From contig PLOC01000115.1 in the NCBI GenBank assembly GCA_003141955.1, positions 1,864-65,863 on the forward strand: 64,000 nt of DNA. The letters are read 5' to 3'. The DNA comes from Chloroflexota bacterium. GTDB lineage: Bacteria; Chloroflexota; Limnocylindria; Limnocylindrales; CSP1-4. Made by a program: the position numbers and the translations under genes. Under the pieces are notes generated by a model. The model saw only the letters and a program-made list of their open reading frames with translations. It ran no database searches and was not told the DNA's origin. Below, in pieces: positions 31,341-51,458 of this stretch (position 1 is the stretch's first letter; each line of letters starts with the position of its first letter).

Positions 31341-31398
31341 GTGCCTCTGTCGAGGCGGCCAGCGCCCCGGACGTGAGCCCATATATAAAGGCCGGTTG

Positions 31399-31693: not shown

Positions 31694-31700
31694 CACGGCT

Positions 31701-34894: not shown

Positions 34895-35052
34895 TGGCCG
34901 GCATCCTAGCAGGCGAATCGCCGGTCCGCCTCGGGTGACACCCTGAGAGGCGGCGCCAGGAACGCGGCCGCAACGCGTCTTCGGCGCCACTCCGCCGCTT
35001 GTCCTGGCATCGCCGGTCGCCAAGAAAGCCGATTCCTGGTAACCTCCGGTGC

Positions 35053-35292
35053 ATGGCACGACGCTTCAACTTCATCTTCGCGGCCCTTCTCGGGGTCGTC
35101 ACTGCCCTCGTGCTCCTGGTGGGGGCGGCGGTGGCGATGCCAGCTCAGCAGACGACGCTGCCGGCGAAGCCCACCTTCGTGGTCCTGCCGACTCCCACGT
35201 CGACGCCCCTGCCGATCGTGACGCCTACGCCCACACCCGGCCCCGCCGGCGACAGCCCCGCCACGACGATCGCACCCTTCGGAGACGGCTGA
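35053..35292 (+). CDS. Small hypothetical exported or membrane-anchored Pro/Thr-rich protein
   Basis: MARRFNFIFAALLGVVTALVLLVGAAVA is signal/TM-like, followed by a TPTSTPLPIVTPTPTPGP tract. No homology recognised. Confidence 0.35.
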   Translation: MARRFNFIFAALLGVVTALVLLVGAAVAMPAQQTTLPAKPTFVVLPTPTSTPLPIVTPTPTPGPAGDSPATTIAPFGDG

Positions 35293-35384: not shown

Positions 35385-36845
35385 CTACCCCTTCAGGACG
35401 CCGGCGGCGCTGCTGGCGGCGTTGAGGATCGCCGGGAAGAGCCCGAAGACGAGCGTGGCGATGCCGGTCACGGCCAGGCCGACCCGGAAGAGCAGGCCCG
35501 GCGACAGGGGCGGGGCATCCTCGGCGGGATCGCGCATGTACATGTACACGACCACGCGCAGGTAGTAGAACGCCGCTGCGGCCGCATTCAGCATCGCCAG
35601 CACCGCGAGGGCCGTCAGCCAGCCCCCGGCCTGGATCGCCGCGACGATGACGTAGGCTTTGGCCCAGAAACCGGCGAGCGGCGGAATCCCCGTGAGCGAC
35701 AGCAGGAAGAGCGCCATCAGCGCCCCCAGCCACGGACTGCGCCGCCCCAGGCCGGCAAACGTGGAGATCTGGCTCGTGACCCCGGGCCGGCGCTGCAGGG
35801 CGGTGATCACCGCGAACGCGCCCATGTTCATGAACGTGTACGCGGCGCCGTAGAAGAGGATCGCCGAGATGCCGCTGTGCTGGCCGCCGGCGTAGGCCGC
35901 CAGGCCGACCAGGATGTAGCCGGTGTGCGCGATCGAGGAGTACGCCAGCATCCGCTTGACGTTGTCCTGGGTGATCGCCACCAGGTTGCCCAGGGTCATC
36001 GTCAGGGCGGCCAGGACGATCACGATCGGCAGCCAGTCGGCCTTGAGCGGGCCCAGGGCGGCCACGAACAGCCGCAGGGCGACGGCGAAGGCGCCGATCT
36101 TGGGACCGACCGAAAGGTACGCCGTAACGGGCGTCGGAGAGCCCTGGTACGCGTCTGGAGTCCAGTAGTGGAACGGCACCGCGGCCATCTTGAAGGCCAC
36201 GCCCGCGGTCATGAACGCCAGGCCCATGGCCAGGCCTGGGGCGATCGAGCCCTTCGCTGCCGCCTGTGCCAGCGCCGCGGCCACGACGTCGACGCGCGTG
36301 CTGCCGGTCAGGCCCCAGACATAGGCCAGGCCAAACAGCAGGATTGCGCTGGAGAAGGAGCCCAAGAGGAAGTACTTGATCGCGCCTTCGGTCGAGTAGG
36401 GGTCGTTCCGAGCGTAGCCGGCCAGCAGGTAGCCGGGCAGGACCATCAGCTCCAGGGCCACGAAGAGGAGGAGCAGGTCGGCGGAGCCCGCGACGAGCAT
36501 CGCCCCGGTGATGGCGAAGATCAGGACCGCGGCGAACTCGGCGATCGGCAGGCCGCGCGGCTGCAGGTAGTCATCGGCGAACATGATCGTGAGGGCGGCG
36601 ATGGCCACGAACAGCAGGTCCAGGAATGCGGTCAGGCCGTCCACGACGTAGGCGCCCCCGAAGGCGGTTTCGGTGTGTCCTGCGAGCGACAGGACCACGG
36701 CCGCCGTCACGGCCAGCCCCATGAGCGCCGTAGCGATGGCCGGAGCGCGCCGCCCGGGCGCCGCGATGTCCACGAGCAGCACCGCCGCGGCCGTGAGAAC
36801 GGCCCAGATGATCGGCGCCAGGGAGCCCAGGTCGGACCAGTTCAT
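35385..36845 (-). CDS. nuoN: NADH-quinone oxidoreductase subunit N
   Basis: Antiporter-like polytopic protein at the last position of the operon (GYLLAGYARNDPYSTEGAIKYFLLGSFSSA). Confidence 0.9.
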   Translation of the reverse strand: MNWSDLGSLAPIIWAVLTAAAVLLVDIAAPGRRAPAIATALMGLAVTAAVVLSLAGHTETAFGGAYVVDGLTAFLDLLFVAIAALTIMFADDYLQPRGLPIAEFAAVLIFAITGAMLVAGSADLLLLFVALELMVLPGYLLAGYARNDPYSTEGAIKYFLLGSFSSAILLFGLAYVWGLTGSTRVDVVAAALAQAAAKGSIAPGLAMGLAFMTAGVAFKMAAVPFHYWTPDAYQGSPTPVTAYLSVGPKIGAFAVALRLFVAALGPLKADWLPIVIVLAALTMTLGNLVAITQDNVKRMLAYSSIAHTGYILVGLAAYAGGQHSGISAILFYGAAYTFMNMGAFAVITALQRRPGVTSQISTFAGLGRRSPWLGALMALFLLSLTGIPPLAGFWAKAYVIVAAIQAGGWLTALAVLAMLNAAAAAFYYLRVVVYMYMRDPAEDAPPLSPGLLFRVGLAVTGIATLVFGLFPAILNAASSAAGVLKG

Positions 36846-36857
36846 CTAGTTCTCCTC

Positions 36858-38381
36858 TCAGCCGCCGACCGCTGAGCCAGCGGCCACGAGGAAGTGCTGG
36901 ACCGGGCCGTTCAGGAAGTCGAGGATCAGGCTCGGGAAGAGCCCGAATACCACGATCAGGGCGGCAAGCGGGGCGAGAGTGGCGAACTCGACCCGGCTCA
37001 TGTCGGTCACGTGGTCGCCCAGGCCCGCCAGGAAGTCCGAGACGGGGCCGAAGGCGACGCGCTGGAACATCCACAGCAGGTACGTCGCCACCAGGACCAT
37101 GACGATGATCGAGGCGACGACGATTCCGGGCGCGTAGACGAAGGACCCGACGAAGACCAGGAACTCGCCGACGAAGCCGGAGAGCCCCGGCAGCCCGGCC
37201 GAGGCCAGGATGAAGAAGCCGAAGACGGTCGACCAGATCGGCATCGTCGCCGCCAGGCCGCCCATCTTGGCGATCGATCGGTCGTGGGTGCGCTCGTAGA
37301 CGACGCCGACCAGGAGGAAGAGCCCGCCCGTGATCAGGCCGTGGTTGATCATCTGCAGGATCGCGCCCTGCAGGGCGGTGGCGGTGAAGACGAAGATGCC
37401 CAGAGTCACGAAGCCCATGTGGCTGACGGAGCTGTAGGCGATGAGGCGCTTGAGGTCCGGCTGGACGATCGAGACGATCGCGCCGTACACGATCGCGATC
37501 ACGCTCAGGACGATGATCGGCCAGGCGAACGTGTGGGCCGCGTACGGGTAGAGAGGCACGGCGAAGCGGATCAGGCCGTATGCGCCGAGCTTGAGGAGGA
37601 CGCCCGCGAGGATCACCGAGCCGGCCGTCGGGGCCTCGGTGTGGGCGTCGGGCAGCCAGGTATGGAACGGGAACATCGGGACCTTGATGGCGAAGGCAAG
37701 GAAGAGCGCCAGGAAGGCCAGCAGCTGGAAGTTCTGGCCGAAGGAGCCGGCGGCGGCGAACGCCTGCAGCTTCTCATAGTCGAAGGCGCCCGCCCACGAC
37801 CCGGTCGCCGCCTGGTACGTGAAGGCCGTGGCCAGGATCGCCACCAGCATCAGCAGCGACCCGACGAGCGTGTACAGAACGAACTTCATCGTTGCGTAGA
37901 TGCGGTTCGCCCCGCCCCAGATGCCGATGATCAGGTACATCGGGACCAGGACCAGCTCCCAGAAGATGTAGAAGAGGAAGAGGTCGAGGGCGACGAAGAC
38001 GCCGATCATGCCGACCTCGAGGACCAGGAAGGAGATCATGTACTCCTTCACCCGGAACTTGATCGGCCCGAAGCTGGCCAGGATGCTGATCCAGCTGAGC
38101 GTCGTCGTCAGGACGACCATCAGCACGCTCAGGCCGTCGACGCCCAGCTTGTACTGGATGCCGAACGACGGGATCCAGTCGGCCGCTTCCGTGAACTGGA
38201 AGCCGGCCTGGGTGCGGGCAAAGGCCACGAGCAGGATCAGGGACAGGACCCACGTCGCCAGTGCCGTTCCGAGGGCCGTGCGGCGGATCAGGTTGGGGTC
38301 CCCGGAGGGCAGAACCGCGATGAGCACCGCTCCCAGGAGCGGCAGGAAGGTGATCAGGCTCAGGATCGGCAGGCCGGACAT
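36858..38381 (-). CDS. nuoM: NADH-quinone oxidoreductase subunit M
   Basis: MSGLPILSLITFLPLLGAV...FPFHTWLPDAHTEAPTAGSVILAGVLLKLG. ATG at 38381 with AGAGGAG upstream. The rest of the 1047-aa ORF is an out-of-frame overlap with nuoL. Confidence 0.9.
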   Translation of the reverse strand: MSGLPILSLITFLPLLGAVLIAVLPSGDPNLIRRTALGTALATWVLSLILLVAFARTQAGFQFTEAADWIPSFGIQYKLGVDGLSVLMVVLTTTLSWISILASFGPIKFRVKEYMISFLVLEVGMIGVFVALDLFLFYIFWELVLVPMYLIIGIWGGANRIYATMKFVLYTLVGSLLMLVAILATAFTYQAATGSWAGAFDYEKLQAFAAAGSFGQNFQLLAFLALFLAFAIKVPMFPFHTWLPDAHTEAPTAGSVILAGVLLKLGAYGLIRFAVPLYPYAAHTFAWPIIVLSVIAIVYGAIVSIVQPDLKRLIAYSSVSHMGFVTLGIFVFTATALQGAILQMINHGLITGGLFLLVGVVYERTHDRSIAKMGGLAATMPIWSTVFGFFILASAGLPGLSGFVGEFLVFVGSFVYAPGIVVASIIVMVLVATYLLWMFQRVAFGPVSDFLAGLGDHVTDMSRVEFATLAPLAALIVVFGLFPSLILDFLNGPVQHFLVAAGSAVGG

Positions 38382-38392
38382 CGTCGCTCCTC

Positions 38393-40363
38393 TTACCTGG
38401 CCGCGATCACGAGATAGCCGGCGGCCACGAGGATCAGGCCGAGGGCGATGCCGAGCGCGTAGTTCTGGACCCGGCCCGTCTGGACGCGGCGAAGCCACCC
38501 GCCGGCGCCGGCGGTGACGGTGCCGATGCCGTTGACGGTCCCGTCGACGACGGTCCGATCGAACCAGAACGCGGCGGCGGCGAGCTTGCCGCCCCACTCG
38601 ACGAAGAGCTTGTTGTTGATGTCGTCGAACCACCACTTGTTGAACGAGCCCTTGTAAAGCAATGCCAGGCCGCGCCGGGCGCTGATCTCGCGGACCTGGT
38701 CGGGACGCGGCTGGGCCCGCAGGCCCAGGACCGGGATCTCGACGCCGAAGAGCCGCCAGGCAAGCACGATTGCCACGGCGACGAGAGCCGTCGTCCCGAT
38801 CGCCAGGGCGCCGTCGACGCCGAAGAAGTTGTAGGCGGCCTCCGTGTGGCCGCTGGCGGCGATCGTGCTCGCGAAGACCGGCGCCAGCCACTGGTGGAGC
38901 AGGCCCGTCTCCGGCGGGAAGCCGATCGCCAGGCCCAGCAGCGCGGCCGGGATGGCGAGCAGGATCAGCGGCCCGGTCATCGACCGCGGCGACTCGTGGA
39001 TATGGTGCTCGACCTCGGGATCGACGTGACTCGGGCCCCAGAAGGTCATGCCCATGAGCCGGAACATGTAGAAGGCGGTCATGCCGGCGACGACGAACCC
39101 GATCGCCCAGACCCACAGGAACCCGTTCTTGAACGCGCCGCCCAGGATTTCGTCCTTGGAGAAGAACCCGGCCAGTGGCGGAACGCCGGAGATTGCCACC
39201 GCGCCGACGAGCATGGTCGCGTACGTGATCGGGATCTTGCGGGCCAGCCCGCCCATCTTGCGCATGTCCTGCTCGCCGTCGACGGAGTGGATGACGGAGC
39301 CCGAGTCCAGGAAGAGCAGGCCCTTGAAGAAGCCGTGGCTCATGAGGTGGAAAATCGCCGCCGTCCACGCCCCGACGCCCAGGGAGGCGAACATGTAGCC
39401 GAGCTGGGAGAGCGTCGAGTAGGCCAGCACGCGCTTGATGTCGGTCTGGGTGAAGGCGATCGAGGCGGCCAGGATGGCGGTAAAGATGCCGATCGCGGCC
39501 ACCACGACCATGACCTCGGGGGCGGCTCCGAAGATAGGGTTGCAGCGGGCGACGAGGTATACGCCGGCGTTGACCATCGTCGCGGCGTGGATCAGGGCGG
39601 AGACCGGGGTGGGGCCCTCCATAGCGTCCGGCAGCCAGACGTGGAGCGGGAACTGGGCGCTCTTGCCCACGGCACCGCAGAAGATGAGCAGCGCGATCGC
39701 GATCTGCCACTCGTGGGGCACGCTGCCGAACTTCGCGAAGACGTCTTGCATGTTCAGAGTGCCGAGTTGAGTCCAGATGGCCATGATGCCGAGCGCGAAG
39801 CCCATGTCGCCGATGCGGTTGACCAGGAAGGCCTTCTTGGCCGCCACCGCCGCGGTTCGGCGCGGGTACCAGAAGCCGATCAACAGGTAGCTGCACAGGC
39901 CCACCAGTTCCCAGCCGGCGAAGACGAGCAGGAAGTTGTCGGCCATGACCAGGAGGAGCATCGAGAACATGAACAGGTTCAGGTAGGCGAAGAAGCGCCA
40001 CCGCCCCGGGTCATGGGCCATGTAGCCGATCGAGTAGACATGGACGAGCATGCCGATCGTCGTAACGACGATGAGCAGGCACGCGGTCAGCGGGTCTACG
40101 AAGAGGCCCATGCTGGCGTTGAAGCCGCTGGCAAAGCCGTTGGCCGGGATCCACGTCCAGAGCGTGATGCCGGCGCCCCCCGTCCCGAAGGGTGAGGCGT
40201 GGAGCAGGGCCATGACGGCCACGATCGAAGCCACGACCCAGGACGCCACCACCGCCCAGACGGCGATGCGGTGGGCGTCGTCGGGGTAGCGGCGGCCCAG
40301 CAGGCCGGTCAGGACGAAGCCGCCGAGCGGCAGGATCGGGATGAGCGGAAGGAGCGCGGTCAT
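38393..40363 (-). CDS. nuoL: NADH-quinone oxidoreductase subunit L
   Basis: GWELVGLCSYLLIGFWY...FPLHVWLPDAMEGPTPVSALIHAATMV, with a C-terminal lateral helix region. Confidence 0.93.
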   Translation of the reverse strand: MTALLPLIPILPLGGFVLTGLLGRRYPDDAHRIAVWAVVASWVVASIVAVMALLHASPFGTGGAGITLWTWIPANGFASGFNASMGLFVDPLTACLLIVVTTIGMLVHVYSIGYMAHDPGRWRFFAYLNLFMFSMLLLVMADNFLLVFAGWELVGLCSYLLIGFWYPRRTAAVAAKKAFLVNRIGDMGFALGIMAIWTQLGTLNMQDVFAKFGSVPHEWQIAIALLIFCGAVGKSAQFPLHVWLPDAMEGPTPVSALIHAATMVNAGVYLVARCNPIFGAAPEVMVVVAAIGIFTAILAASIAFTQTDIKRVLAYSTLSQLGYMFASLGVGAWTAAIFHLMSHGFFKGLLFLDSGSVIHSVDGEQDMRKMGGLARKIPITYATMLVGAVAISGVPPLAGFFSKDEILGGAFKNGFLWVWAIGFVVAGMTAFYMFRLMGMTFWGPSHVDPEVEHHIHESPRSMTGPLILLAIPAALLGLAIGFPPETGLLHQWLAPVFASTIAASGHTEAAYNFFGVDGALAIGTTALVAVAIVLAWRLFGVEIPVLGLRAQPRPDQVREISARRGLALLYKGSFNKWWFDDINNKLFVEWGGKLAAAAFWFDRTVVDGTVNGIGTVTAGAGGWLRRVQTGRVQNYALGIALGLILVAAGYLVIAAR

Positions 40364-40370
40364 CGTCGGC

Positions 40371-40682
40371 TCACTGACTCATGGAATCGTATTCGTCGAC
40401 AAGAGGCGTCTTCTTGTTCCGATAGATCGCGATGACGATCGCCAGGCCGACCGTGGCCTCGGCCGCGGCCACGGCGATCACGATCAGGGCGATGACCGAG
40501 GCGTGGACGTGGAGCGGCTTCACGAATGCCCCGAAGGCGATGATGGTGAGGTTGACCGCGTTGAGCATCAGCTCGATCGACATCAGCATGCTGATGGCGT
40601 TGCGCCGGGCCAGGAAGCCGAAGGTGCCGATGGCGAAGAGCAGGCCCGACAGGACGAGGTAGGAGTCGAGCGAATTGCTCAC
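40371..40682 (-). CDS. nuoK: NADH-quinone oxidoreductase subunit K
   Basis: 103 aa, three TM helices, [22 protein letters not shown]. The GTG start overlaps the nuoJ stop (GTGA). Confidence 0.93.
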
Positions 40683-41227
40683 GACCGATCCTCCTTGTCG
40701 GCGGGCGGCTCACGCCTGGCCAGCAGAACCCCGCCCACCACGGCGGCGGTGAGCAGCACGCTCACGACCTCGAACGGCAGGACGTACTGGCCGAAGAGCA
40801 TCGTGGCGATGTCGGACGTGGCGGTCCAGGCCACGGCACCGGTGGATGGCCAGGTGGTGGTCAGGACCGTGCCGGCGATGATCGCCGCGATCACGACCGC
40901 GGCAACGGCTCCAATCCAGGCCTGGGTCTGGAAGACCAGTCGCGTGGGGGCGTTCTTGGTCTGGGTCAGCATGATCGCGAACAGGACCAGGATGCTGATC
41001 GCGCCGATGTAGACCAGGACCTGGGTGGCCGCGAGGAGCGGATTGCCGAGCAGGACGTAGATGCCGGCCAGCGAGGCGAACGAGGCGATCATCGCCAGAC
41101 CGCAGCGAATGATGTCGCGCATGGTCACGACCAGCAGCGCCGAGCCGAGAAGCATGATCGCCAGCACGACGAACAGGACGTCGTCCCAGCGGACCGCCGT
41201 GAACGGGAGAGTCTGGCCTATCGGCAT
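40679..41227 (-). CDS. nuoJ: NADH-quinone oxidoreductase subunit J
   Basis: [64 protein letters not shown] at 41227. Confidence 0.88.
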
Positions 41228-41252
41228 GCCTCCCTGCCCTCCTCGTCGTGGA

Positions 41253-44036
41253 TCACTGGTGCTCGGCTCCATTTCCATCGCCGGGGGCGGCGGCGAGCGC
41301 CGGCGGGAGTGCCGGCAGCCCGTCCCCGGGGTTCGCGAGTCGACCGTCGGCCACGGCGTGGGCGAGCCAGTCGCGTTCGCGCCGGATGTAGGTCACTTCG
41401 GTTTCGCCGCCCATGGCCGCCAGGCCGATCAGGTCGATCATCGGCTGGGACCGGTCGATGTGGGCGAGCTCGTTGTCGGGGCCGCCGCGCAGCGCGTCGT
41501 ACGGGCAGGCGTCGACGCAGATGCCGCATAGGATGCAGCGGCTCTCGTCCACGTCGTACTTCTCCAGGACGCGCGGCTTGGGCATGAGCGCGCCCGTGGG
41601 GCACGTCTCGGCGCAGCGGCCGCAGGAGACGCACGGCGTGTCGTTGAGGCTCATGTCGAGCGGCGTCGTCACCAGGGTGTCGAAGCCGATGCGCATGAAG
41701 TCGTAGCAGGCGGCGCCCACGACATCGGCGCAGACGGCGGCGCAGCGGCCGCAGTCGATGCAGCGCGACGGCTCGCGCAGGATGAAGGCGTGGCTGTCGT
41801 CGCGGATGTAGTCGTGGTTGGCGCCGGTGAAGCGGTTCTCGGTGACGCTTCTGAAGCCGGCGCCTTCGTTGTGGCGAGGCTCCAGCGTTTCGAGCGTCGT
41901 CCCGTACTCCAGGCCGAGATTGCGCAGGTCGCAGTAGCCGATCGCCTCGCAGGTGCACTGCAGGCAGCGGCTCGATTCGGCCATGGCCTCGGTCTGGGGG
42001 TAGGGGATCTCGTACTCGACGTAGCTCCTGTTGCGGTCCTCCGCCGGCATCGCCTTGAGGCGGTGGCGGGGTTCCTTGGGCTCGTCGGTGTAGGGCGTGA
42101 TCGAGAGGAACTTGAGCTCGGGCTCGGCGAGGGTCTCCCGTGCGCGCAGCTCCGAGAGGTCCGTCCCGCGCAGGAAAGCGTCCACGGCGTAGGCGCAGCG
42201 CCGCCCCTCGGCGATGGCCTGTACCACGGTCGCGGCTCCGATACGAACGTCGCCGGTGCCGAAGACGCCGGGCCGGCCGGTCTCGAAGGTGACCGCGTCG
42301 GCCTTGAGCCTGTACCTGGCTTCCTCGATGCCCTCGTTGCCGGGTCCGATCCACGACAGATCGGGACCCTGGCCGATGGCGAGCAGGACGCGGTCGCACT
42401 TGATCACGAACTCGGTCCCCGGCGCGGGCTCGGGGCGGCGACGGCCGGAGGCATCCGGCGCGCCGGGGCGCATGCGGATGAACTCGACGCCTGTGACGCG
42501 ATTCTTGCGGTCGACGATGACGCGCGTCGGGCCGGCCTGGAAGATGGCTCGAGCCCCTTCCTCGAGCCCCTCGTGGACCTCGCTGGCGGCCGGCATGTCC
42601 TTCATGTCGCGGCGGTAGACGAGCGTGACCTCCTTCGCGCCCTGGCGGACGGAGGTGCGCATGCAGTCCATGGCGGTGAAGCCGCCGCCGATGACGACGA
42701 CGCGGCTGCCGGCGTGGCCCGGATAGGGCAGGCCGAGAGTGGCGATCTTGAGGTATTCGAGGCCGTCGATGACGCCGTTGGCGTTCTCGTTTTCAACGCC
42801 GAGCTTATTCGTGTCGTAGCAGCCCGTGGCGACGATCGTGGCGTCGAAGCCCCGCTCGCGCAGGTCGTCCAGGCTGAAGTCGCGGCCGAGGGCCTGGTTG
42901 ACCTCGAGGCTGGCGCCCAGGCGCCAGACGGCGTCGTACTCGGGCTCGAGGACGTCCTTCTTGGGCAGGCGGTACTCCGGGATGCCGTAGCGGAGCATTC
43001 CGCCCGGCTCGGGGTCGCGCTCGAAGACGGTCGTGTCGTGGCCGGATATCTGCAGGTAGTAGGCCGCCGCCATGCCGGCCGGCCCGGAGCCGACGATGGC
43101 GACGCGCTTGTCGGTCCGGGGCTGGGTTTCGAACGGCAGCGGCGGCTCCATGCCGTCCTTCTGCGCCGCGAGCACCACGTCGCCGGCGTAGCGATGGCTG
43201 TCGCGGATGGCGATTGCCTCGTCCACCTCGTCGCGGCGGCAGTGCTCCTCGCACGGTGCCGGGCAGACTCGGCCAAGGATCGAGGGGAACGGGATGGTGC
43301 GCTTGAAGATGCGCGCCGACTCGCGGAACTGGCCCTCGGCGTTGGCCTTGAGGAAGCCCGGGATGTCGATGTGGCTCGGGCACTTGTTCTGACACGGCGG
43401 CAGGCAGTAGGCGTTGTGGTCGCTGAAGATCAGCTCGAGGTTGGTCCGGCGCAGCCGGCGGACCTCGTCGGTCTGGGTTCGGACGACCATGCCCGCCACA
43501 GCTTCGCGGGCGCACGAGATCGTCGGATGATCCTCACCCTCGACCTCCACGACGCACATCCGGCAGGCGCCGAAGCCCGGCAGCTTGGGCTCGTAGCAGA
43601 GCGTGGGGACGTCGATGCCGTTGGCCCGGCAGACCTCGAGGATCGTCTGACCCTCGGTGCCGATGACCTCGCGGTCGTCGATCGTGAGCTTGATGGTGGG
43701 CGTCGAAAGCGGGCGCTGGGGGGCTTGCGCCGTGATCAACCGCTCGGCCGGCGAGTCGTTGAGCGGCGTGACCGTGTCGCGCGGCGCCCTGGCGTCGGGG
43801 CGGCTGTCGACGCGTCCGGCCCTGCGGTTCCAGACCGGCTTTTCGTTGGCGGCGGGCCGCAGGCTCTTCACCGAGGGGGCGTTGGGCAGGGCCGGCAGAG
43901 GGCCGGGGGCGACGACGGGCGGCGCCGCCGGGAGCCTGCTGGCGGGCATGGCGGGCGGGGCGGGCATGGCGGGTTTCCCGGCCGGCGGGGTGGCGGGCGG
44001 GGCGCTCGGGCTGGGTCGGAGGTTCGGTTGACGCAT
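41253..44036 (-). CDS. Composite Fe-S flavoprotein: Pro-rich N-terminal extension, NuoG-type 2Fe-2S domain, inserted GltD-type (FAD/NAD(P)H, 2x[4Fe-4S]) module, NuoG-type 4Fe-4S domains, and the C-terminal half of NuoI
   Basis: 2Fe-2S: [20 protein letters not shown]...ISC. GltD: [19 protein letters not shown]...[42 protein letters not shown], GDV...VVQAIAEGR. NuoG Fe-S: [41 protein letters not shown]. NuoI C-half: [23 protein letters not shown]. There is no molybdopterin-like NuoG C-terminal domain. ATG at 44036 lies 9 nt after the nuoF stop. Confidence 0.85.
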   Translation of the reverse strand: [927 protein letters not shown]

Positions 44037-44044
44037 GGGACGCC

Positions 44045-45424
44045 TCAGGAGACGGCCCGGGCGCGAGAGGCTGCCATCGGCTGGCAGATCCCGGCGGGGC
44101 ACGTGCTGCGGACGATGTGGTCATCGAGCTCGTCGCGGAAGTACCGGACGAGGCTCAGGAGGGGCAGCGTGGAGCGGCGTTCGTGGTCGCACAGCCGGCT
44201 GGCCACGATGTCCGCGGAAAGGTCGGTCAGGCGCTCGATCTCGTCGCCACGGGGCTGACCCTCGCAGAAGCGCGCCCCGATCTCGGCCATGCGGCGCAGC
44301 CCGATCCGGCAGGGGATCGTCTTGCCGCAGGCCTGGTCGGCGCAGAAACGGGTCAGCACCGACGCGAGATCGACCAGGCAGACGCGCTCGTCGACGACGA
44401 CGATCGAGCCGGAGCCCATCCATGCGCCGGCGGCTTCGAGCGCCTCGAACTCGTAGGGGGTCTTGCCGGCGCCGGGCGGGAGGATGCCACCGGACGGGCC
44501 GCCGACGAGGAACGCCTTGACCGTGTGGGGCGCCGGAACGCCGCCGGCCAGGACCACGATCTCGCCGATCGTCGTGCCGAGCGGAACCTCTGCCAGGCCG
44601 GGATTGACGACCGAGCCGGAGATCTGGACCAGCACGGTGCCCGCGCCCCCTTTGGCCGCGGCCTCGAGGTACGTGCCGGGGCCGCCGGTGATGATCCCCG
44701 GGACCACGGCGAATGTCTGGGCGTTGTGGACGAGGGTCGGCTTGCCGTACAGGCCTCTTGTCGTCGGGTACGGGGGCTGCTGCTCGGGCTGGCCGCGGTG
44801 ACCTTCGATGCCCTTGAGCAGGACCGTCTCCTCGCCCAGCATGTATGCGCCCTGGAGCGGCTTGACCTCGACGTTGATGTCGCGGCCGCTGCCGAGGACG
44901 TCGTTGCCCAAGTAGCCCGCAACCTCGGCCTCGCGGATCGCGGTCTCGAGCGTGGCGATGGCTTCCGTGGCCTCGGCGTGCAGCGCGACGATGATGTCGG
45001 AGGCTCCCACTGCGACGGCAGCGATGGCCGCTCCCTCGAGAACTGCGTAGGGGCTGCGCTCGAGGAGGACGCGATCGGTGAAGACGGCGGGATCGGCCTG
45101 GTAGGCGTGAACGACAACGTAGCGGCGGTCGGCCGCCGTGAGGGCGCAGGCGCGCCACTTCTCGCTCGTGGGGAACCCCGCCCCGCCACGGCCGCGCAAC
45201 CCGGAATTGGCCAGGACCGCCACGATCTCGCCCGCGGTCATTTCCTTGATCGCCTCGGTCAACCCCTTGAAGGCGCCGGCCGCGACGGCGGCGTCGAGGT
45301 CCGTTGGCGCCGCGCCACTCGCGCCGGCCGCGCCACTCGCGCCGGCCGCGCCACTCGCGCCGGCCGCGGGCAGCAGCAGATGCGGCCACTTGTCCGGCGT
45401 CGGAAGGACGTTCACGGTCGTCAT
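44045..45424 (-). CDS. nuoF: NADH-quinone oxidoreductase subunit F-like (FMN/NADH-binding 51-kDa type)
   Basis: GLRGRGGAGFPTSEKW, GAYMLGEETVLLKGIEG, CGKTIPCRIG. The ATG at 45424 overlaps the upstream stop (ATGA). Confidence 0.88.
   Translation of the reverse strand: MTTVNVLPTPDKWPHLLLPAAGASGAAGASGAAGASGAAPTDLDAAVAAGAFKGLTEAIKEMTAGEIVAVLANSGLRGRGGAGFPTSEKWRACALTAADRRYVVVHAYQADPAVFTDRVLLERSPYAVLEGAAIAAVAVGASDIIVALHAEATEAIATLETAIREAEVAGYLGNDVLGSGRDINVEVKPLQGAYMLGEETVLLKGIEGHRGQPEQQPPYPTTRGLYGKPTLVHNAQTFAVVPGIITGGPGTYLEAAAKGGAGTVLVQISGSVVNPGLAEVPLGTTIGEIVVLAGGVPAPHTVKAFLVGGPSGGILPPGAGKTPYEFEALEAAGAWMGSGSIVVVDERVCLVDLASVLTRFCADQACGKTIPCRIGLRRMAEIGARFCEGQPRGDEIERLTDLSADIVASRLCDHERRSTLPLLSLVRYFRDELDDHIVRSTCPAGICQPMAASRARAVS
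45311..45364 (-). repeat. 18-nt perfect tandem repeat x3 encoding (AGASGA)3 near the NuoF N-terminus
   Basis: cgcgccactcgcgccggc at 45311, 45329 and 45347. Confidence 0.95.
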
Positions 45425-46236
45425 GCCACGCTCTTCCCTGCCAGGGAGCGGCTCCACGCGGCGGCGCTCGTCTCGGTAACGTCGGCCTGGGGCTTGCCGT
45501 CCAGCGTTACGAGCGGCGAAGCCGCGCCGGGGGTATGGGTGGGCAGCTGCTCGAGCGCCACGCCACCCGCCGGCCCGCCGCCGAGCTTCGTCCCAAGCCC
45601 CTCGCCGATCGCGTTCGCGATTCGGCCGGACCCGGCGAGCAGGCAGCTGGTGCAGCGGCAGACCGCGACGGTTCGGGCCTGTCGCTCGAAGCTCAGGTGG
45701 CTGTAATAGGTTGCCGTCCCGTACACGAGTGCGTACGAGGCGCCGGTGACGTGGCTGATATGCTTGATCGCGGCAATCGGCAGATAGCCATACGCCGCCT
45801 GGACCTCTTCGAGGATCGGCAGCATGTTGCCCGGGTCGTAGTCGCGGGCCTCCAGGATCTCCTCGACCGCGACCAGGTCGATCGGCCCGAAGTGCGTGAA
45901 CGCCTGGTCGGGCACCGGCCGGCCGGAGCGCCGCAGGGCGGACTCCTCGCGCCGCTCGCCGTACGTCTCGGCCGGGCCCCAATGGGTGTAGAAGCGGCCC
46001 TTGGTGTCGTGGCCGCCCATGTCGATGCATTCCACCGGGCAGGCCTGGGCGCACTGGAAGCACGTCTCGCACTTGAGGTTGCCGAACTCGTCGTACAGCA
46101 GCTGCAGCCGGCCGCGGAAGCGGACTGCGATGTCCGGCTTCGTCTCGGGGTACTGGATCGTCGCCTTTGGCGCGAAGAAGCGGCGCAGCGTCAGCGCCAT
46201 TCCCTTCGCGATGCCGAGGCCGGGGATGAAGCTCAT
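45421..46236 (-). CDS. Fusion of the NuoI N-terminal half (one 4Fe-4S motif) to a NuoE-like thioredoxin-fold domain
   Basis: The N-terminus is colinear with NuoI/Nqo9 (GMALTLRRFFAPKATIQYPETKPDIAVRFRGRLQLL...NLKCETCFQCAQACPVECI). It continues into NuoE-like LPILEEVQAAYGYLP...TATYYSHLSF...VAVCRCTSCLLAG. The ATG at 46236 overlaps the nuoH stop (ATGA). Confidence 0.8.
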   Translation of the reverse strand: MSFIPGLGIAKGMALTLRRFFAPKATIQYPETKPDIAVRFRGRLQLLYDEFGNLKCETCFQCAQACPVECIDMGGHDTKGRFYTHWGPAETYGERREESALRRSGRPVPDQAFTHFGPIDLVAVEEILEARDYDPGNMLPILEEVQAAYGYLPIAAIKHISHVTGASYALVYGTATYYSHLSFERQARTVAVCRCTSCLLAGSGRIANAIGEGLGTKLGGGPAGGVALEQLPTHTPGAASPLVTLDGKPQADVTETSAAAWSRSLAGKSVA

Positions 46237-47594
46237 CGCGGGATCACCGGTTGGTTGAGGATGATGATCGCGGCGGCCGTCACGAACAGGTTCAGGAGCG
46301 AGGCGGGCAGGAGCCATTTCCAGGCGAAGCCCATCAGCTGATCCACCCGGACTCGCGGCAGGGTGCCCCGCATCCAAACGAAGGTGAAGACGAAGACGTA
46401 GGTCTTGGCAAAGAACCAGAAGATGCCCTGGACCCAGTCGAAGGCGATGAAGCAGGCCAGGCCGACTGCGGCCGTGACGCCGGCGCCCGCGATCAGGAGG
46501 CCGAGCCCGAAGGCGCTCGGAGCGCTCCACTCCCGGCCGCCGATCAGCCAGATCGCCGCGCCCAGGATGTCCGTGGCCACCACCAGCGCGACGAGCGCGA
46601 TCGGGATCCAGAGAATGCCGATCCCGGCGGCGTCGAGCCAGTTGAGGTTGTACGGCCAGGGCCAGTTGATCGGGGCCGTCCAGCCGCCGAAGAAGAGCGT
46701 CACCAGCAGGGCCGAGATGATGAAGACGTTCACGTACTCGGCGAAGAAAAAGAAGCCGAAGCGCATCCCCGAGTATTCGGTGGCGAAGCCGGCGACGATC
46801 TCAGAGTCGGCCTCGGTCATGTCGAATGGGGTGCGGTTGGCCTCCGCCGTGGCGGCGATGAAGAAGATGAGCACCGCCAGGGGCTGCTTGAAGGCGAACC
46901 AGTCGAGAGCCGAGCCGGACTGCGACAGGACGATGCCGTTCATGCTCATCGTGCCGGCGAGCAGGACCACGCCCACGACGGAAATGGTCAGCGGGATCTC
47001 GTAGCTGACGATCTGCGCCGCCGAGCGGAGCCCGCCCAGGAGCGAGTACTTGTTGAAGCTCGCCCAGCCGGCCATGAGCAGGCCCAGGACGGCGAGGCCG
47101 CCCATGGCGAAGAAGTAGAGCACGCCGATGTTGAGGTCCTGGCCGAAGATGCCGGGCGCGAACGGGATGACCAGGAGGGTCATGACGCTGGCCAGGAAGG
47201 TGACGACCGGGGCCAGGGTGAAGACCGTCAGATCGGCGCCGGTGGGCGCGAAGTCCTCCTTGGAGAGGACCTTGAAGCCGTGGAACAGGCTCATCGCCGC
47301 ACCCCACGGGCCGATCCGGTTGGGGCCGACCCGCAGGTTCATGCGGGCGATGACCTTCAGCTCCATGTAGATCAGCACGAAGGCCGTCGGAATGGTCAGG
47401 ACCAGGATGCCCACGACGGCGACGACGAACCGGACCAGCGGCATGTTCGCCCCCAGGAAATCCATCGTGGGCGGCAGGATGAAGACGATACCCACGACGG
47501 TGCCGACGGCCAGCAGCACGGCCAGCGGCAGCAGGATCGCCGTCAGGCGGGCGGTCAGGGACATGCGGCCCCAGGTCCGAGCGGCGAGGGTCAT
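46233..47594 (-). CDS. nuoH: NADH-quinone oxidoreductase subunit H
   Basis: ELKVIARMNLRVGPNRIGPWGAAMSLFHGFKVLSKEDF...EYSGMRFGFFFFAEY. Confidence 0.92.
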   Translation of the reverse strand: MTLAARTWGRMSLTARLTAILLPLAVLLAVGTVVGIVFILPPTMDFLGANMPLVRFVVAVVGILVLTIPTAFVLIYMELKVIARMNLRVGPNRIGPWGAAMSLFHGFKVLSKEDFAPTGADLTVFTLAPVVTFLASVMTLLVIPFAPGIFGQDLNIGVLYFFAMGGLAVLGLLMAGWASFNKYSLLGGLRSAAQIVSYEIPLTISVVGVVLLAGTMSMNGIVLSQSGSALDWFAFKQPLAVLIFFIAATAEANRTPFDMTEADSEIVAGFATEYSGMRFGFFFFAEYVNVFIISALLVTLFFGGWTAPINWPWPYNLNWLDAAGIGILWIPIALVALVVATDILGAAIWLIGGREWSAPSAFGLGLLIAGAGVTAAVGLACFIAFDWVQGIFWFFAKTYVFVFTFVWMRGTLPRVRVDQLMGFAWKWLLPASLLNLFVTAAAIIILNQPVIPR

Positions 47595-47604
47595 CGGACG
47601 GCCC

Positions 47605-48906
47605 TCACTTGTCGATCCCGCCCAGGACCGGGTCGAGCGAGGCGACGATGGTCATCGTGTCCGCCAGCAGGTTGCCGGGCAGCAGCGTGGGCACCGTCTC
47701 CAGGTTCAGGAAGCTGGGGTCGTGGATGCGGAAGCGGAACGGCTGGTCCGAGCCGTCGCTGATCGTGTACACGCCGAGCATTCCTCTTGGCCCCTCGCAC
47801 GCGCCCCAGGCGCGCCCGGGCCGCGGCCGGAGCAGCCGTGGCAGCTTCGCCATGACCGGGCCGTCGGGCATGTTGTGGAGGCACTGGTCGATGATCTTGA
47901 TCGACTCGCGAACCTCGTCCACGCGGATCAGGTAGCGGGCCAGCGAGTCGCCCTCCAGGCGAGTCGGGACGTTGAAGTCGAGCTCCGGGTAGATGCTGTA
48001 CGGGTGGGCTCGTCGGATGTCGAACGGCACGCCGGCGGCGCGCAGGTTCCCGCCCGTGACCCCAAAGCGGAGGGCCGTGGCCCGGTCCAGGACGCCGACC
48101 CCCCGGGCCCGCCGGACGAAGATTTCGTTCTCGTTCAGCAGCCCGGCATTGGCCTCGGTCTGCCTCGCGGCACGGCTCATCCAGTCGCCCAGGCGGCTCA
48201 TGAACTCGTGATTGAGGTCGCCGTTCACGCCGCCGATTCGGAAGTAGTTGAACAGCATCCGCGCGCCGGTGAGGGCCGCGAGCATCTCCACGATCTCGTC
48301 GCGCTCGATGAAGCTGTAGAGGATCGGCGTCAGACCGCCCAGGTCCAGGGCCAGGAAGCCCATGTAGAGGGTGTGGCTGGCGACGCGCAGCAGCTCGCCG
48401 GAGAGGACCCGAATGTACTCAGCCCGTCGCGGCACCTCCACGTCCATGAGCTTCTCGAACGAGAGGACCGCGGCCCACTCCTGGAACAGAGAGCTGACGT
48501 ACTCGAGCGGATCCACCTGGTCGATGACGTGGTAGTAGTCCGAGTTCTCGCAGATCTTCTCGACGCCGCGGTGGAGATAGCCGAGGACCGGGTCCACGTC
48601 GACTATCTGCTCGCCCGAGAGCTTCAGGACGAGGCGAAGGACGCCGTGAGTGGCCGGGTGGTGCGGGCCGATGTTGATGAACATCTCCCCGTCGCCGCGG
48701 GTGTAGAACTCGCCCTCGCGTTCGGTCCGGGTGGGGTAGGGCGGGATCGGCTCGTACAGGTCCGCACCGACGTCGCGGTCGAGCATGATGCGCGGGTCGT
48801 CCTCGGAGCGGTGCTGCTCGGGCGGGCGCGGCTCCTGGGGTCGCGTCTCACCGCGGGTCTCGGCGCGGGCGGCGCGAGTCGTCGGGCGGGTGGGGCGGGC
48901 CGGCAT
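47605..48906 (-). CDS. nuoD: NADH-quinone oxidoreductase subunit D
   Basis: INIGPHHPATHGVLRLVLKLSGEQIVDVDPVLGYLHRGVEK. Carries a ~40-aa Arg/Pro-rich N-terminal extension if the start is 48906; an alternative ATG is at 48786. Confidence 0.92.
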   Translation of the reverse strand: MPARPTRPTTRAARAETRGETRPQEPRPPEQHRSEDDPRIMLDRDVGADLYEPIPPYPTRTEREGEFYTRGDGEMFINIGPHHPATHGVLRLVLKLSGEQIVDVDPVLGYLHRGVEKICENSDYYHVIDQVDPLEYVSSLFQEWAAVLSFEKLMDVEVPRRAEYIRVLSGELLRVASHTLYMGFLALDLGGLTPILYSFIERDEIVEMLAALTGARMLFNYFRIGGVNGDLNHEFMSRLGDWMSRAARQTEANAGLLNENEIFVRRARGVGVLDRATALRFGVTGGNLRAAGVPFDIRRAHPYSIYPELDFNVPTRLEGDSLARYLIRVDEVRESIKIIDQCLHNMPDGPVMAKLPRLLRPRPGRAWGACEGPRGMLGVYTISDGSDQPFRFRIHDPSFLNLETVPTLLPGNLLADTMTIVASLDPVLGGIDK

Positions 48907-48914
48907 CTATGGCC

Positions 48915-49472
48915 TCAGCTCGCCGGCGCCCGGCGGACGCCGGCCGCGGGATCGTCGGCCACGACGGCCGGGGCGTAGGGTCGCTCCACGTGCCGGACGC
49001 CCTCACCCGGGGATCGGGCCGCATCGTCGGGCAGGAGGAAATCCTTGCGGAGCGGGAAGCTCGTGTAGTCGGGCGGCATGAAGATGCGGCGCAGGTCGCG
49101 GTTGCCCTCGAAGACGATGCCGAACATGTCGTAGGCCTCGCGCTCGAGCCACTCCGCGCCGGTCCACAGGAACGTGGCGGAGGGGCATCGCGGGTCCTCG
49201 CGGGAGATCCCGTCGACGATGATGCGCAGCCAGTCCGGGCTGGTTTCGCTCCAGAGGTGGTACACGACCTGCATCGACTCGCCCGTGTCGACGCCGGCCA
49301 GATCCGCCAGGATCTCGAAGCGGAAATCGACGGAGTCGTGCAGGGTGCGGAGCACGTCCGGAACGTCGCCGGGCTGGATTCGGATTTCGGTCTGGTCGTG
49401 GCGCTGGCGAATCGGGCCCTGGATCTGCGTGCCCAGGCGCGCTTCCAGCCGGCGCTTGAGAGTTCGGTCCAT
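48915..49472 (-). CDS. nuoC: NADH-quinone oxidoreductase subunit C
   Basis: WTGAEWLEREAYDMFGIVFEGNRDLRRIFMPPDY..FPLRKDF. Confidence 0.92.
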   Translation of the reverse strand: MDRTLKRRLEARLGTQIQGPIRQRHDQTEIRIQPGDVPDVLRTLHDSVDFRFEILADLAGVDTGESMQVVYHLWSETSPDWLRIIVDGISREDPRCPSATFLWTGAEWLEREAYDMFGIVFEGNRDLRRIFMPPDYTSFPLRKDFLLPDDAARSPGEGVRHVERPYAPAVVADDPAAGVRRAPAS

Positions 49473-49475
49473 CGG

Positions 49476-50189
49476 TCAGATCTTGTCCGGTACGGTGGGG
49501 CCGATCTCGCGCTCGGGCCAGTGGCCGCGCTGATCCTTGACCAGCTGCCCGAGCTGGAGCATGCCGTAGATGAGGCCTTCGGGGCGAGGCGGGCAGCCCG
49601 GGATGTACACGTCCACGGGCATGACCCGGTCGATTCCCTGGACCGTCGAGTAGCTCCTCTTGTAGCGGCCGCCCGAGACGGTGCAGTCGCCGAGGGCGAC
49701 GCACCACTTGGGCTCCGGCATCTGCTCCCACAGCCGGATCAGCGGTCCTGACATCTTGGTGGTCAGGGTGCCGGCGACGATCAGCACGTCCGACTGTCGG
49801 GGCGACGCGCGGAACGGGAACATGCCCCAGCGGTCCATGTCGAACTTGCTGGTGGCACCCGACATCATCTCGAAGGCACAGCAGGCCAGGCCCGAGAGGA
49901 GCGGCCAGAGGCTGTTGGCCCGGATGAGGTCGAGGATGTAGTCCGCCCTGGTCGGAACGATCTGGAGCGCGCCCCAGCGCGCGTCGTCGCGGCGCCCGGC
50001 GTCGGTCAGGCCGAACTCGCGCAGGTGGGTGATCTCGGCCGGACGCCCGCCGTCGTACGCGAGCGGGTTGGCCGCCCGCCAGAGAGTGTTGGGAACGACG
50101 ATCGGCGCGCTCAGCTCGCCTGGAGCAAGGGGTGCGAGCTGACCCGGGGCCGCCTTGGCTCCCTTCGGCCCCCGGTCCCCTACCGCCAC
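49476..50189 (-). CDS. nuoB: NADH-quinone oxidoreductase subunit B
   Basis: SLWPLLSGLACCAFEMM...RQSDVLIVAGT...CVALGDCTVSGG...DVYIPGCPPRPE. The in-frame GTG at 50189 (10-nt overlap with nuoA) is preferred over the ORF-track start at 50300. Confidence 0.9.
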   Translation of the reverse strand: MAVGDRGPKGAKAAPGQLAPLAPGELSAPIVVPNTLWRAANPLAYDGGRPAEITHLREFGLTDAGRRDDARWGALQIVPTRADYILDLIRANSLWPLLSGLACCAFEMMSGATSKFDMDRWGMFPFRASPRQSDVLIVAGTLTTKMSGPLIRLWEQMPEPKWCVALGDCTVSGGRYKRSYSTVQGIDRVMPVDVYIPGCPPRPEGLIYGMLQLGQLVKDQRGHWPEREIGPTVPDKI

Positions 50190-50536
50190 GTCAGGACTCC
50201 CTTCCGCCAGGCGTAGGCCAATCCGAGCATGAGAACGAGCACGAAAGTGCCCATGCTCACCAGGCCGCCCAGCAGCAGACTTCGGAAGACGATCGCCCAC
50301 AGGAAGAGGAACACCACCTCCACGTCGAAGGCGACGAAGAGAAGGGCGTAGATGTAGAAGGACACACCGAACCTGCCCCAGGTGTCGCCGACCGTGTCGA
50401 TGCCGCTCTCATACGGCAAGCCCTTGTCGCCGTCGCCGCGGTTGCGGTGTGAGAGAACCCAGGCCAGGCCGATGACGAGGAATACGAAACCGACTCCCGC
50501 GGCGGCCAAGCCAAGGACGTACCAGATGCCGGTCAT
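50180..50536 (-). CDS. nuoA: NADH-quinone oxidoreductase subunit A
   Basis: 118 aa, three TM helices, LPYESGIDTVGDTWGRFGVSFYIYALLFVAFDVEVVFLF. ATG at 50536. Confidence 0.92.
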   Translation of the reverse strand: MTGIWYVLGLAAAGVGFVFLVIGLAWVLSHRNRGDGDKGLPYESGIDTVGDTWGRFGVSFYIYALLFVAFDVEVVFLFLWAIVFRSLLLGGLVSMGTFVLVLMLGLAYAWRKGVLTWR

Positions 50537-51458
50537 CTCTCTCCAGCCGTACCTGCCGTCCGCGGGGGGCGTTCCGCGGTGCACTCGGGCATAAGCGTTT
50601 GATCTCGGGACGCGGGGACGGGTTCGATGCCCGTTCCCTCGCGGTCCAGCCGAAAGTCTACCAGCAGGGCCGGGGGTGTCGGGAATCGCAGGTGCCGCCT
50701 GTGCGTGCGGGCAGACGGCCGGTGAGACGGCGGGGAGGGTTGGGCGTCCCAGAAAAGCCGGCGCGGGCGGCTCGGGGCTAGTCGTGCCGCCCGCGTCCCC
50801 GGCTAGGCCGTCAGTGGGGTAGCGACTGGCGGCTGCACACGGATCTTCGATATCAGCGGAGCCGGCGCGAGGAGGGGCCCGATCGCTCCAACGACCCGAC
50901 GGCCTCGTCGCGTTCCCACGCTCCGCCGCGTAGGTTGCCGCCATCGCCGAGGTCCGGCAATACGGGAGGTGCCCTATCGCTGGCCGGCCGAGACGCGTTC
51001 GCTCCCGCCGGGTCGGTCTTTGCCCAATATCAGCTCCGGCGATACAACGAAACGTGGACCGGGCTCCGACAGCCCGTGTGTCGCAGTTGTCTGGCGCTCG
51101 CGGCTATCACCGTCGGCCTGGGCGCGCTTTCTCGTGCCACGGCGCCTCTGGTCCCGACCCCCGACTTGCCTCTCTCACTTGGCATAGCCCCGGGTGTTGT
51201 TGAGGAATTGCGGCCGCGGGTCGAGGTTGACGAGACGACCTCCTGGCCCGCCAGACCGGAGCTGTCGTCCAGGTCGTGCCGTAGTCACCAGGGCAGACCA
51301 ACGCCTCGGCTGGCTTGACTCAATGCGCGACCCCGCCGATGCTCTCCTCCGTCGGAGCCAGGGGAACGACGTAGCAGAAGGCGGGGCTCCAGGTGGACAC
51401 TTCCGACGTCGGCGCGGTCAGAGGGTTTGGTGCTCGTCTCGTCTCTGCAGGCGGGGCG

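Follow-up and report, generated by a model that had tools for sequence, protein, structure and literature searches.

Where does a complex I find its NuoI subunit when its operon carries no intact nuoI gene? This question is raised by a stretch of 64,000 nucleotides (nt), hereafter the window, from a Chloroflexota bacterium of the class Limnocylindria (GCA_003141955.1, contig PLOC01000115.1, positions 1,864-65,863 of the forward strand). Thirteen closely packed genes of the minus strand (35385-50536) follow here the order nuoA-B-C-D-H-X-F-Y-J-K-L-M-N, in which X, F and Y denote the three genes between nuoH and nuoJ. NuoI, also known as TYKY, belongs to the 14 core subunits conserved in complex I and counts as a fixed element of this enzyme. 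An earlier note on this DNA had given the same gene order, which is borne out by the layout of the open reading frames (ORFs) and by NCBIfam matches, and had proposed that nuoI is split between X and Y.

In the current analysis the locus is best explained as a complex I operon with a core of the 11-subunit type (nuoABCDH..JKLMN), in which a cassette for an NAD(P)H oxidoreductase of the NfnABC/StnABC type (Bfu family) lies inside a split nuoI, the two halves of which would re-form the N6a/N6b domain. We assign this reading a probability of roughly 80%. It is supported by the complementary and colinear halves of NuoI in X and Y, by the conserved gene order, by the presence of the ten core subunits and by the lack of any other NuoI nearby.

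The NuoI halves of X and Y

The N-terminal part of X and the C-terminal part of Y match complementary portions of NuoI. Residues 10-86 of X match positions 14-91 of the 180 positions of the NuoI profile PRK05888.1-1 (E 4.5e-16), and the same half matches positions 1-66 of the 121 positions of TIGR01971, while residues 822-867 of Y match the complementary positions 71-116 of TIGR01971. X holds exactly one CxxCxxCxxxCP motif and continues into a NuoE-like domain (PF01257), and Y ends in the half with the second motif; both genes had been read in this way in the earlier note. The two motifs are thus found on separate polypeptides, encoded about 4.4 kb apart with F between them.

The halves were also joined in silico, residues 1-100 of X being followed by residues 814-927 of Y for a structure-sequence search and by residues 818-927 for a profile search. 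The joined halves align without interruption to Nqo9 of T. thermophilus and to NuoI of M. smegmatis, and in two colinear pieces to the mitochondrial TYKY protein 7ar7_I (residues 9-75 of X on 23-89, the part from Y on 97-152), which leaves about 7 loop residues of 7ar7_I uncovered. With TIGR01971 a single match spans profile positions 1-116 at 93.0 bits, as compared with 55.1 bits for X alone and 41.4 bits for the third motif and tail of Y; the scores are nearly additive, which supports complementary halves. Canonical NuoI (Nqo9, TYKY or NDUFS8, the carrier of clusters N6a and N6b) has the same N-terminal segment, both motifs and a C-terminal segment of the ...FELA... type. The match is colinear with the T. 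thermophilus, M. smegmatis, E. coli and mitochondrial forms, and the gene for the canonical subunit occupies the same slot between nuoH and nuoJ. Here, in contrast, the subunit consists of two polypeptides, broken in the loop between the cluster motifs and each fused to a subunit of the input module.

No intact nuoI is present in the operon, as had been stated earlier. A motif scan of the 64-kb window finds CxxCxxCxxxCP three times, once in X and twice in Y, and in no further ORF. No other NuoI-like ORF was found in the window or in about 20 kb round the operon in related loci, all the Nqo9 matches falling within X or Y. The possibility that the termini of X and Y are unrelated, generic ferredoxin motifs was considered and is rejected, as NuoI families lead the matches even when only the third motif and tail of Y are searched, where NuoI models are the top six.

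In ferredoxin folds with two [4Fe-4S] clusters each cluster is held by three cysteines of one motif and a fourth belonging to the partner motif. The C-terminal region of Y has three motifs, namely M1 (C759/762/765/769), M2 (C802/805/808/812-P) and M3 (C834/837/840/844-P), and its M1-M2 domain is colinear over the full length with the two-cluster domain of NfnA, StnC and HydA (9bov_A, 8oh5_C). Since M1 and M2 form a complete domain in NfnABC/StnABC, M3 of Y and the motif of X are the sole unpaired ones, and together they provide eight cysteines for two clusters. The earlier argument from an odd motif therefore stands in so far as M3 is left to pair with the motif of X, but the first two motifs of Y are of the NfnA/StnC type and Y is not a NuoG. 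All eight cysteines of the NuoI type are present and invariant, and cluster binding is predicted from the sequence. With one motif in each half and each cluster requiring cysteines from both motifs, X and Y would have to co-assemble.

The coupling of the genes fits such a co-assembly. ATGA overlaps, previously proposed for the H/X junction (46233-46236) and the X/F junction (45421-45424), are confirmed by reading the junction sequence. The gap between F and Y is 8 nt and not 9 nt as claimed before, with the stop of F at 44045-44047 and the ATG of Y at 44036-44034. The ORF start of nuoJ overlaps the 3' end of Y by 26 nt, and the real start of nuoJ may be further downstream.

In an AlphaFold2 (AF2) model of X alone the NuoE-like domain has a predicted local distance difference test score (pLDDT) of 80-95, and residues 24-115, including the cluster motif, are unfolded with a pLDDT of 32-48. 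That an unfolded region is so highly conserved fits a segment requiring a partner and may be taken as weak evidence for one. The joined NuoI halves, modelled as a single sequence, have a mean pLDDT of 32, too low for the model to be informative.

The conservation of X, Y and the gene order was studied by a protein search, from which the best 120 matches were listed, by a scan of a collection with one genome per species for X, and by examination of 80 loci. X has hundreds of full-length relatives of 270-272 residues with 59-97% identity, which, where named, belong to Candidatus Limnocylindrales/Limnocylindria or Chloroflexota. Among the matches listed a length of 271 residues recurs in more than 100 protein clusters from NCBI, JGI, ENA and Logan assemblies. 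At least 468 stretches of the one-genome-per-species collection encode a relative of X, and the order A-B-C-D-H-X-F-Y-J-K-L-M-N is seen in every sufficiently long locus of 80 genomes. The NuoI N-terminal half of X changes very little across 79 X orthologues, its stretch KCETCFQCAQACPVECIDMGG being essentially invariant, and so is a 24-residue stretch of the NuoI C-terminal half across 52 Y orthologues. Orthologues of Y are found at 74-93% identity. The columns of the first motif in X remain invariant in an alignment that includes distant lineages.

One further intact X (L026, 5784-6599 of JBIOII010000098.1) stands in a foreign context, with restriction/methylase-like and hypothetical genes upstream and without nuoH. 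The sequence departs from F soon after the stop of X, and this contig is probably chimeric.

All ten genes flanking the X-F-Y segment are of the Nuo type by NCBIfam profiles, so that the complex I core subunits A, B, C, D, H, J, K, L, M and N are encoded in one operon. Seven of the ten (NuoB, D, H, K, L, M and N) pass a curated cut-off for one or more Nuo models; for NuoA, NuoC and NuoJ the Nuo families are top-ranked, yet under their curated cut-offs.

The inserted module in Limnocylindria and in other lineages

The genes enclosed by the NuoI halves had been described as E-, F- and G-like. It is correct that genes for electron input sit inside the split, but by their best matches they are NfnABC/StnABC-like. 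The NfnABC/StnABC enzymes (9bov/9bp5, 8oh5, 9n5u) show the same order of an E-like, an F-like and a large GltD-containing subunit, and they are the best sequence and fold matches for the E-like domain of X, for F and for Y. The canonical complex I models score far lower than their cut-offs: NuoE models give 48-50 bits on X (cut-offs 141-142), the NuoF model TIGR01959 gives 349 bits on F (cut-off 558) and the NuoG model TIGR01973 gives 94 bits on Y (cut-off 470), the last over the N-terminal 100 residues or so only. As distinct from NfnABC/StnABC, the gene context here predicts attachment to the membrane.

Residues 125-259 of X match PF01257, the family of the NuoE-type thioredoxin-like fold (E 1.7e-19). 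This domain is closer to StnA (8oh5_A, 58.5 bits) than to Nqo2 (30.6 bits), and when the AF2 model of X is compared with known folds, NfnC of 9bp5 ranks at the top together with other C subunits of the Bfu family. Of the four canonical cysteines of the [2Fe-2S] cluster, C193 and C198 are kept, while the third and fourth align to T233 and P236, so that the domain has two cluster cysteines fewer than its counterpart in NfnABC/StnABC. C195 and H234 of X are additionally invariant.

The product of F aligns to residues 115-527 of the 584 residues of StnB with 339 bits, as against 249 bits for Nqo1 and 266 bits for M. smegmatis NuoF, and lacks the N-terminal [2Fe-2S] domain and the C-terminal 2x[4Fe-4S] domain of NfnB/StnB. 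In the flavin pocket (44800-45120) a Tyr replaces the canonical Asp in 62 of the 64 orthologues, and at 44160-44350 'LCGLG' has become 'LC(D/A)HE', with an invariant His414. Residues 21-39 (45308-45364), which belong to a non-conserved N-terminus ahead of the part aligning to NuoF/StnB, comprise a perfect threefold repeat, (GASGAA)x3.

Residues 115-844 of Y align to residues 4-699 of C. saccharolyticus NfnA (9bov_A; E 6e-162, 544 bits) and also to 8oh5_C 4-700. Y shares with this large subunit the [2Fe-2S] domain, the inserted GltD-like domain for flavin adenine dinucleotide (FAD) and NADPH, and the two-cluster domain (PMC10482914). Besides two [4Fe-4S] sites, the GltD-like insertion carries the motifs GSGPAG for FAD and GGGFTAMD...VYRR for NAD(P)H. 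It is alignable to NfnA, StnC, NfnL and GltD, and is invariant in its motif region, including an 11-residue stretch, across the 52 orthologues. The 75-kDa/NuoG subunit of complex I, by comparison, is matched with about 82 bits over the N-terminal 130 residues or so only. Y as a true NuoG is hence rejected, a GltD-type FAD/NADPH domain being present, the molybdopterin-like domain being absent and the TIGR01973 score standing at 94 bits against 470.

Unlike StnC (PMC10482914), Y has no FdhF-like C-terminal domain; it ends about 90 residues past the ferredoxin domain and carries the NuoI half in place of this FdhF/NuoG-like region. Its first 100 residues or so (43737-44036) are rich in Pro and Ala and not conserved, orthologues aligning from about residue 78-115, and its start is uncertain, since the reading frame extends upstream as far as a GTG at 44102. 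The [4Fe-4S] cluster beside the FAD has a Lys ligand in Nfn/Stn enzymes (PMC12018979). At this place Y has an invariant His283 (window position about 43188); a His is also found in the relatives L084 and L087 described below, and a Glu in L081.

The loss from F of both extra Fe-S domains, taken with the loss of two [2Fe-2S] cysteines from the E-like domain, points to a plain NAD(P)H dehydrogenase module that does not bifurcate electrons, which is most likely the nature of the module in Limnocylindria. Because they are conserved, the changes at the cofactor sites of F and of the E-like domain are interpreted as adaptations and not as decay.

A search of representatives clustered at 50% identity has revealed X-like proteins of 26-41% identity in other lineages. 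In a Thermoleophilia genome (L087, GCA_052139595.1, JBKQWK010000285.1, 6205-20756) and in L088 the order is nuoABCDH, X', an NfnB/StnB-type gene, Y', nuoJKLMN. The X' protein of L087 has 251 residues and a canonical four-cysteine NuoE domain, and its Y' of 831 residues ends in the NuoI C-terminal half. The subunit between them (643 residues) has an N-terminal [2Fe-2S] domain, the canonical ICNADEGDPGAFMDR flavin motif, the canonical cysteines of cluster N3 and the C-terminal 2x[4Fe-4S] domain, a full NfnB-type subunit unlike that of the window's lineage. This enzyme could still be able to bifurcate, and the complex I of L087 is a candidate for coupling to electron bifurcation.

A second variant (L084, 4693-12917, and L085; 59% GC) has nuoABCDH-X'-F-Y' with a Y' ending in the NuoI half. 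The genes nuoJKLMN are not adjacent and a transposase gene lies at the contig end; the membrane-arm genes must be elsewhere. One partial relative of the X-like protein of this variant carries the name Chloroflexi. The ligands of N3 altered in F of L084 are other than those altered in the window's lineage.

A third variant (L081, Logan SRR22388304, 359-11571, 50% GC) encodes nuoH, X', a 1048-residue [2Fe-2S]-NuoF-GltD fusion, a 265-residue HoxU-like protein and nuoJKLMN. The GltD-like domain is at the C-terminus of the NuoF-like part, and the NuoI C-terminal half is borne by the HoxU-like protein. The four-cysteine [2Fe-2S] site of the NuoE-like subunit is kept in L081 and L087. The core subunits of the variants are 34-55% identical to those of the window, and Y is 46% identical over residues 115-863 (32% for L081). 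The split is thus either old or transferred, and the GltD domain differs in position among lineages.

A similar nested module has been observed in a pyruvate:ferredoxin oxidoreductase operon (L086, 10001-15933 of the 563-kb contig_18644 of ENA ERZ25039462). The order is porG, a porD-like gene, porA, a 280-residue protein with one ferredoxin motif and a NuoE domain, a 637-residue HydB-like protein, a GltD-like ORF that appears frameshifted, and a 509-residue protein in which Y-like M1, M2 and M3 are fused to the thiamine pyrophosphate (TPP) domain of PorB. This suggests that docking through a split ferredoxin may be used with other enzymes too.

Proposed electron path and alternative explanations

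The operon is proposed to have arisen from a cassette whose first product became fused to the N-terminal half of NuoI, giving X, and whose last product, having lost its formate-dehydrogenase-like C-terminal domain, became fused to the C-terminal half, giving Y. X and Y would assemble into one composite N6a/N6b domain on the platform of NuoB, NuoD and NuoH. This domain could serve both as the final electron link from the clusters of the module to N2 and quinone and as a mechanical anchor, in place of the large NuoG domain that is absent here and would otherwise provide the docking. NADPH would donate electrons at the GltD-like FAD of Y, judged by homology with NfnA, StnC, NfnL and GltD, and NADH might perhaps donate at the flavin mononucleotide (FMN) site of F, which is possible but uncertain. 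Electrons would then pass from the clusters of Y through N6a/N6b and N2 to (mena)quinone and drive proton pumping by NuoL, M, N, H, J, K and A.

Several observations weigh against a split NuoI that re-associates in this manner. The 93.0 bits of the joined halves lie below the curated cut-off of TIGR01971 (113.05), the equivalog models are also below theirs, and because of this score the joined halves are to be classed, by sequence, as a divergent NuoI. The search for another NuoI or a second nuo operon covered the window and about 20 kb of the relatives' loci. M2 and M3 of Y are spaced CP-x18-C, as in a classical two-cluster ferredoxin; Pfam Fer4_7 spans residues 802-848 of Y; and residues 53-127 of Nqo9 can be aligned to M2 and M3 by BLAST with a 13-residue gap (E 4e-9). 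The FMN pocket of F reads H/N-A/G-Y-Q/E-A/S-D-P-A in place of N-A-D-E-G-D/E-P-G, which makes NADH oxidation at F uncertain, and the second cysteine of its cluster N3 is a Thr in 63 of the 64 orthologues. Finally, we infer the physical re-association of the halves, and the donor specificity is assigned by homology only.

The alternative that survives best keeps the architecture and changes the chemistry. NADH would enter at F and the GltD-like domain would act as an NADP+ reductase, which would give the complex a built-in transhydrogenase or permit reverse synthesis of NADPH from quinol and the proton-motive force. Nfn/Stn enzymes do interconvert NADH and NADPH (PMC10482914, PMC12018979), both nucleotide-binding domains are conserved, and the Thermoleophilia version retains every domain of the bifurcating NfnB/StnB. 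In the window's lineage, however, the ferredoxin-binding and bifurcation-linked domains of F are lost, and the flavin pocket and cluster N3 of F are altered. We regard this chemistry as possible, though well short of an even chance.

It is unlikely that M2 and M3 of Y constitute a self-contained two-cluster ferredoxin in the role of NuoI, with the motif of X vestigial or pairing with M1, in which case NuoI would be rearranged and not split and re-associated. The clostridial-type spacing, the Fer4_7 match and the Nqo9 alignment given above are in its favour. But M1 and M2 are homologous throughout to the NfnA/StnC/HydA domain, in which M1 pairs with M2. The NuoI score of M3 gains only about 16 bits when M2 is included, against about 52 bits with the half from X, which also yields one colinear match. 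Within X, conservation is highest in its motif and its NuoI-specific N-terminal segment, which is not expected of a vestige, and a single motif is unable to complete a cluster.

Still less probable is that an intact nuoI elsewhere supplies the subunit, the half-motifs of X and Y being accessory, ferredoxin-like additions to an NAD(P)H oxidoreductase that is soluble or only loosely bound and happens to be encoded in the nuo operon. Many Chloroflexota have more than one nuo cluster, and the data covered 64 kb of this genome and the surroundings of the operon in relatives. Separate nuoEFG and 11-subunit clusters have also been described (PMC5736913). Against this, nuoI is missing from the operon at just the place where its halves enclose the insert; the match of the halves is specific to NuoI and extends past the cysteine motifs; both are under strong purifying selection; the arrangement is kept in four divergent lineages; and the ATGA coupling ties H to X and X to F. 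That the split is an artefact of assembly, frameshift or gene calling, or a decaying operon of pseudogenes, is rejected as having a negligible chance, for although high-GC metagenome assemblies do contain frameshifts and several relatives (P0166, P0193 and P0200 among them) are visibly frameshifted, dozens of genomes assembled independently share the gene order and the half-motifs, X is constant in length, and all cofactor motifs are intact and conserved.

The split NuoI with its nested module may be compared with other complexes in which the input module is exchanged. The 11-subunit Nuo, the F420H2 dehydrogenase with FpoF, the cyanobacterial NDH-1 and NUO-2 likewise combine a conserved membrane and quinone module with a swapped input module. 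NUO-2 of Nitrospina gracilis and Kuenenia has a HydB-like NuoF2 in which the flavin site is altered and additional clusters of the HydB type are present (PMC3578206). Unlike in the present locus, NuoI (FpoI, NdhI) is intact in these four and the input module docks non-covalently, and none of them has been reported with a GltD-type NADPH domain. The mbx-like operons are known to have gltD in the place of NuoI (PMC4758237). Fusions such as nuoCD and nuoBCD indicate that subunit boundaries vary among lineages with function kept (bioRxiv 10.1101/2025.03.13.643058); these are end-to-end fusions of whole neighbours, whereas here one ferredoxin domain has been fissioned and an operon segment nested within it. 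Full-text searches of the literature outside subscription-only papers yielded no account of a split NuoI, nor of a nuo operon that contains an Nfn/Stn-type module.

The preferred reading would mean that the NuoI of Limnocylindria, a class abundant in freshwater, peat and soil, consists of two chains. The design occurs in a second phylum (Actinomycetota) as well. It would be a concrete case of modular evolution, the input module of a soluble redox enzyme being grafted on the 11-subunit core, with the shared ferredoxin domain as the graft by which docking and wiring are solved together. A direct link from NADPH to the respiratory chain is possible, and the pyruvate:ferredoxin oxidoreductase operon hints that the trick may be general. 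Tentatively, and with less confidence than in the architecture, these loci may represent a complex I family with a transhydrogenase-type input arm hard-wired through a two-chain ferredoxin domain. Its Limnocylindria members would be proton pumps oxidising NADPH or both NADH and NADPH, and its Thermoleophilia-type members could couple bifurcation or confurcation among NADH, NADPH and ferredoxin to quinone reduction and proton pumping.

In automatic annotation X is named 'NAD(P)H-dependent oxidoreductase subunit E' and Y 'FAD-dependent oxidoreductase', 'formate dehydrogenase major subunit' or 'GltD-like', neither ever being named NuoI. These names are misleading, and surveys with hidden Markov models (HMMs) would therefore score Limnocylindria as lacking NuoI and NuoG and misjudge their respiration.

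Feature coordinates and neighbouring genes

The features of the operon are collected in Table 1.

Table 1. Genes, domains and cluster motifs of the nuo operon, in nt positions of the window (aa, amino acid residues)
Feature	Position	Strand	Description
nuoA	50180..50536	(-)	NCBIfam NuoA families top-ranked, E 4e-25, below cut-offs
nuoB	49476..50300	(-)	TIGR01957, 206 bits (cut-off 142.7)
nuoC	48915..49472	(-)	TIGR01961, 109.6 bits (just under cut-off 122); all top matches NuoC
nuoD	47605..48906	(-)	NF004739, 404 bits (cut-off 360)
nuoH	46233..47594	(-)	NF004741, 313 bits (cut-off 305); stop overlaps start of X as ATGA
Gene X	45421..46236	(-)	271 aa; NuoI N-terminal half fused to NuoE-like domain
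NuoI N-terminal half	45979..46236	(-)	X aa 1-86; amphipathic N-terminal helix, YP...RxRG segment, first cluster motif
First [4Fe-4S] motif	46036..46071	(-)	C56-x2-C59-x2-C62-x3-C66-P67 of X
NuoE/NfnC-like domain	45460..45885	(-)	X aa 118-259; thioredoxin fold
Gene F	44045..45424	(-)	459 aa; NuoF/NfnB-like flavoprotein core; start overlaps stop of X as ATGA
Gene Y	41253..44036	(-)	927 aa as called; NfnA/StnC-like large subunit fused to NuoI C-terminal half
[2Fe-2S] ferredoxin domain	43470..43697	(-)	Y aa 114-189, N-terminal; PF13510, E 5e-20
GltD/NfnL-like insertion	42162..43406	(-)	Y aa 211-625; PF14691, PF07992; PRK12814, E 4e-159
Two-cluster ferredoxin-like domain	41586..41783	(-)	Y aa 752-817, M1 and M2; PF22117 Fer4_Nqo3
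NuoI C-terminal half	41436..41573	(-)	Y aa 822-867; second NuoI motif and ...NELAH... segment
Second NuoI motif (M3)	41502-41537	(-)	C834-x2-C837-x2-C840-x3-C844-P845 of Y
nuoJ	40679..41278	(-)	NuoJ families top-ranked
nuoK	40371..40682	(-)	NF004320, 103.7 bits (cut-off 57)
nuoL	38393..40363	(-)	NF005141, 710 bits (cut-off 556)
nuoM	36858..38381	(-)	TIGR01972, 575 bits (cut-off 264)
nuoN	35385..36845	(-)	TIGR01770, 424 bits (cut-off 333)

As called, NuoB has an Arg/Pro-rich N-terminal extension of about 110 residues and NuoD one of about 70 residues. Because these extensions align in part weakly in relatives, the starts of both genes may be miscalled.

No Pfam family matches the ORFs immediately on either side of the operon (33923-35059 and 51393-52415). 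In a Pfam check of the neighbouring region 19183-33323, a 2165-residue ORF with a protein-O-mannosyltransferase-like region, a GT4 glycosyltransferase, a lipid A acyltransferase-like protein, a PHP_C protein and a transporter of the major facilitator superfamily (MFS) have been identified.

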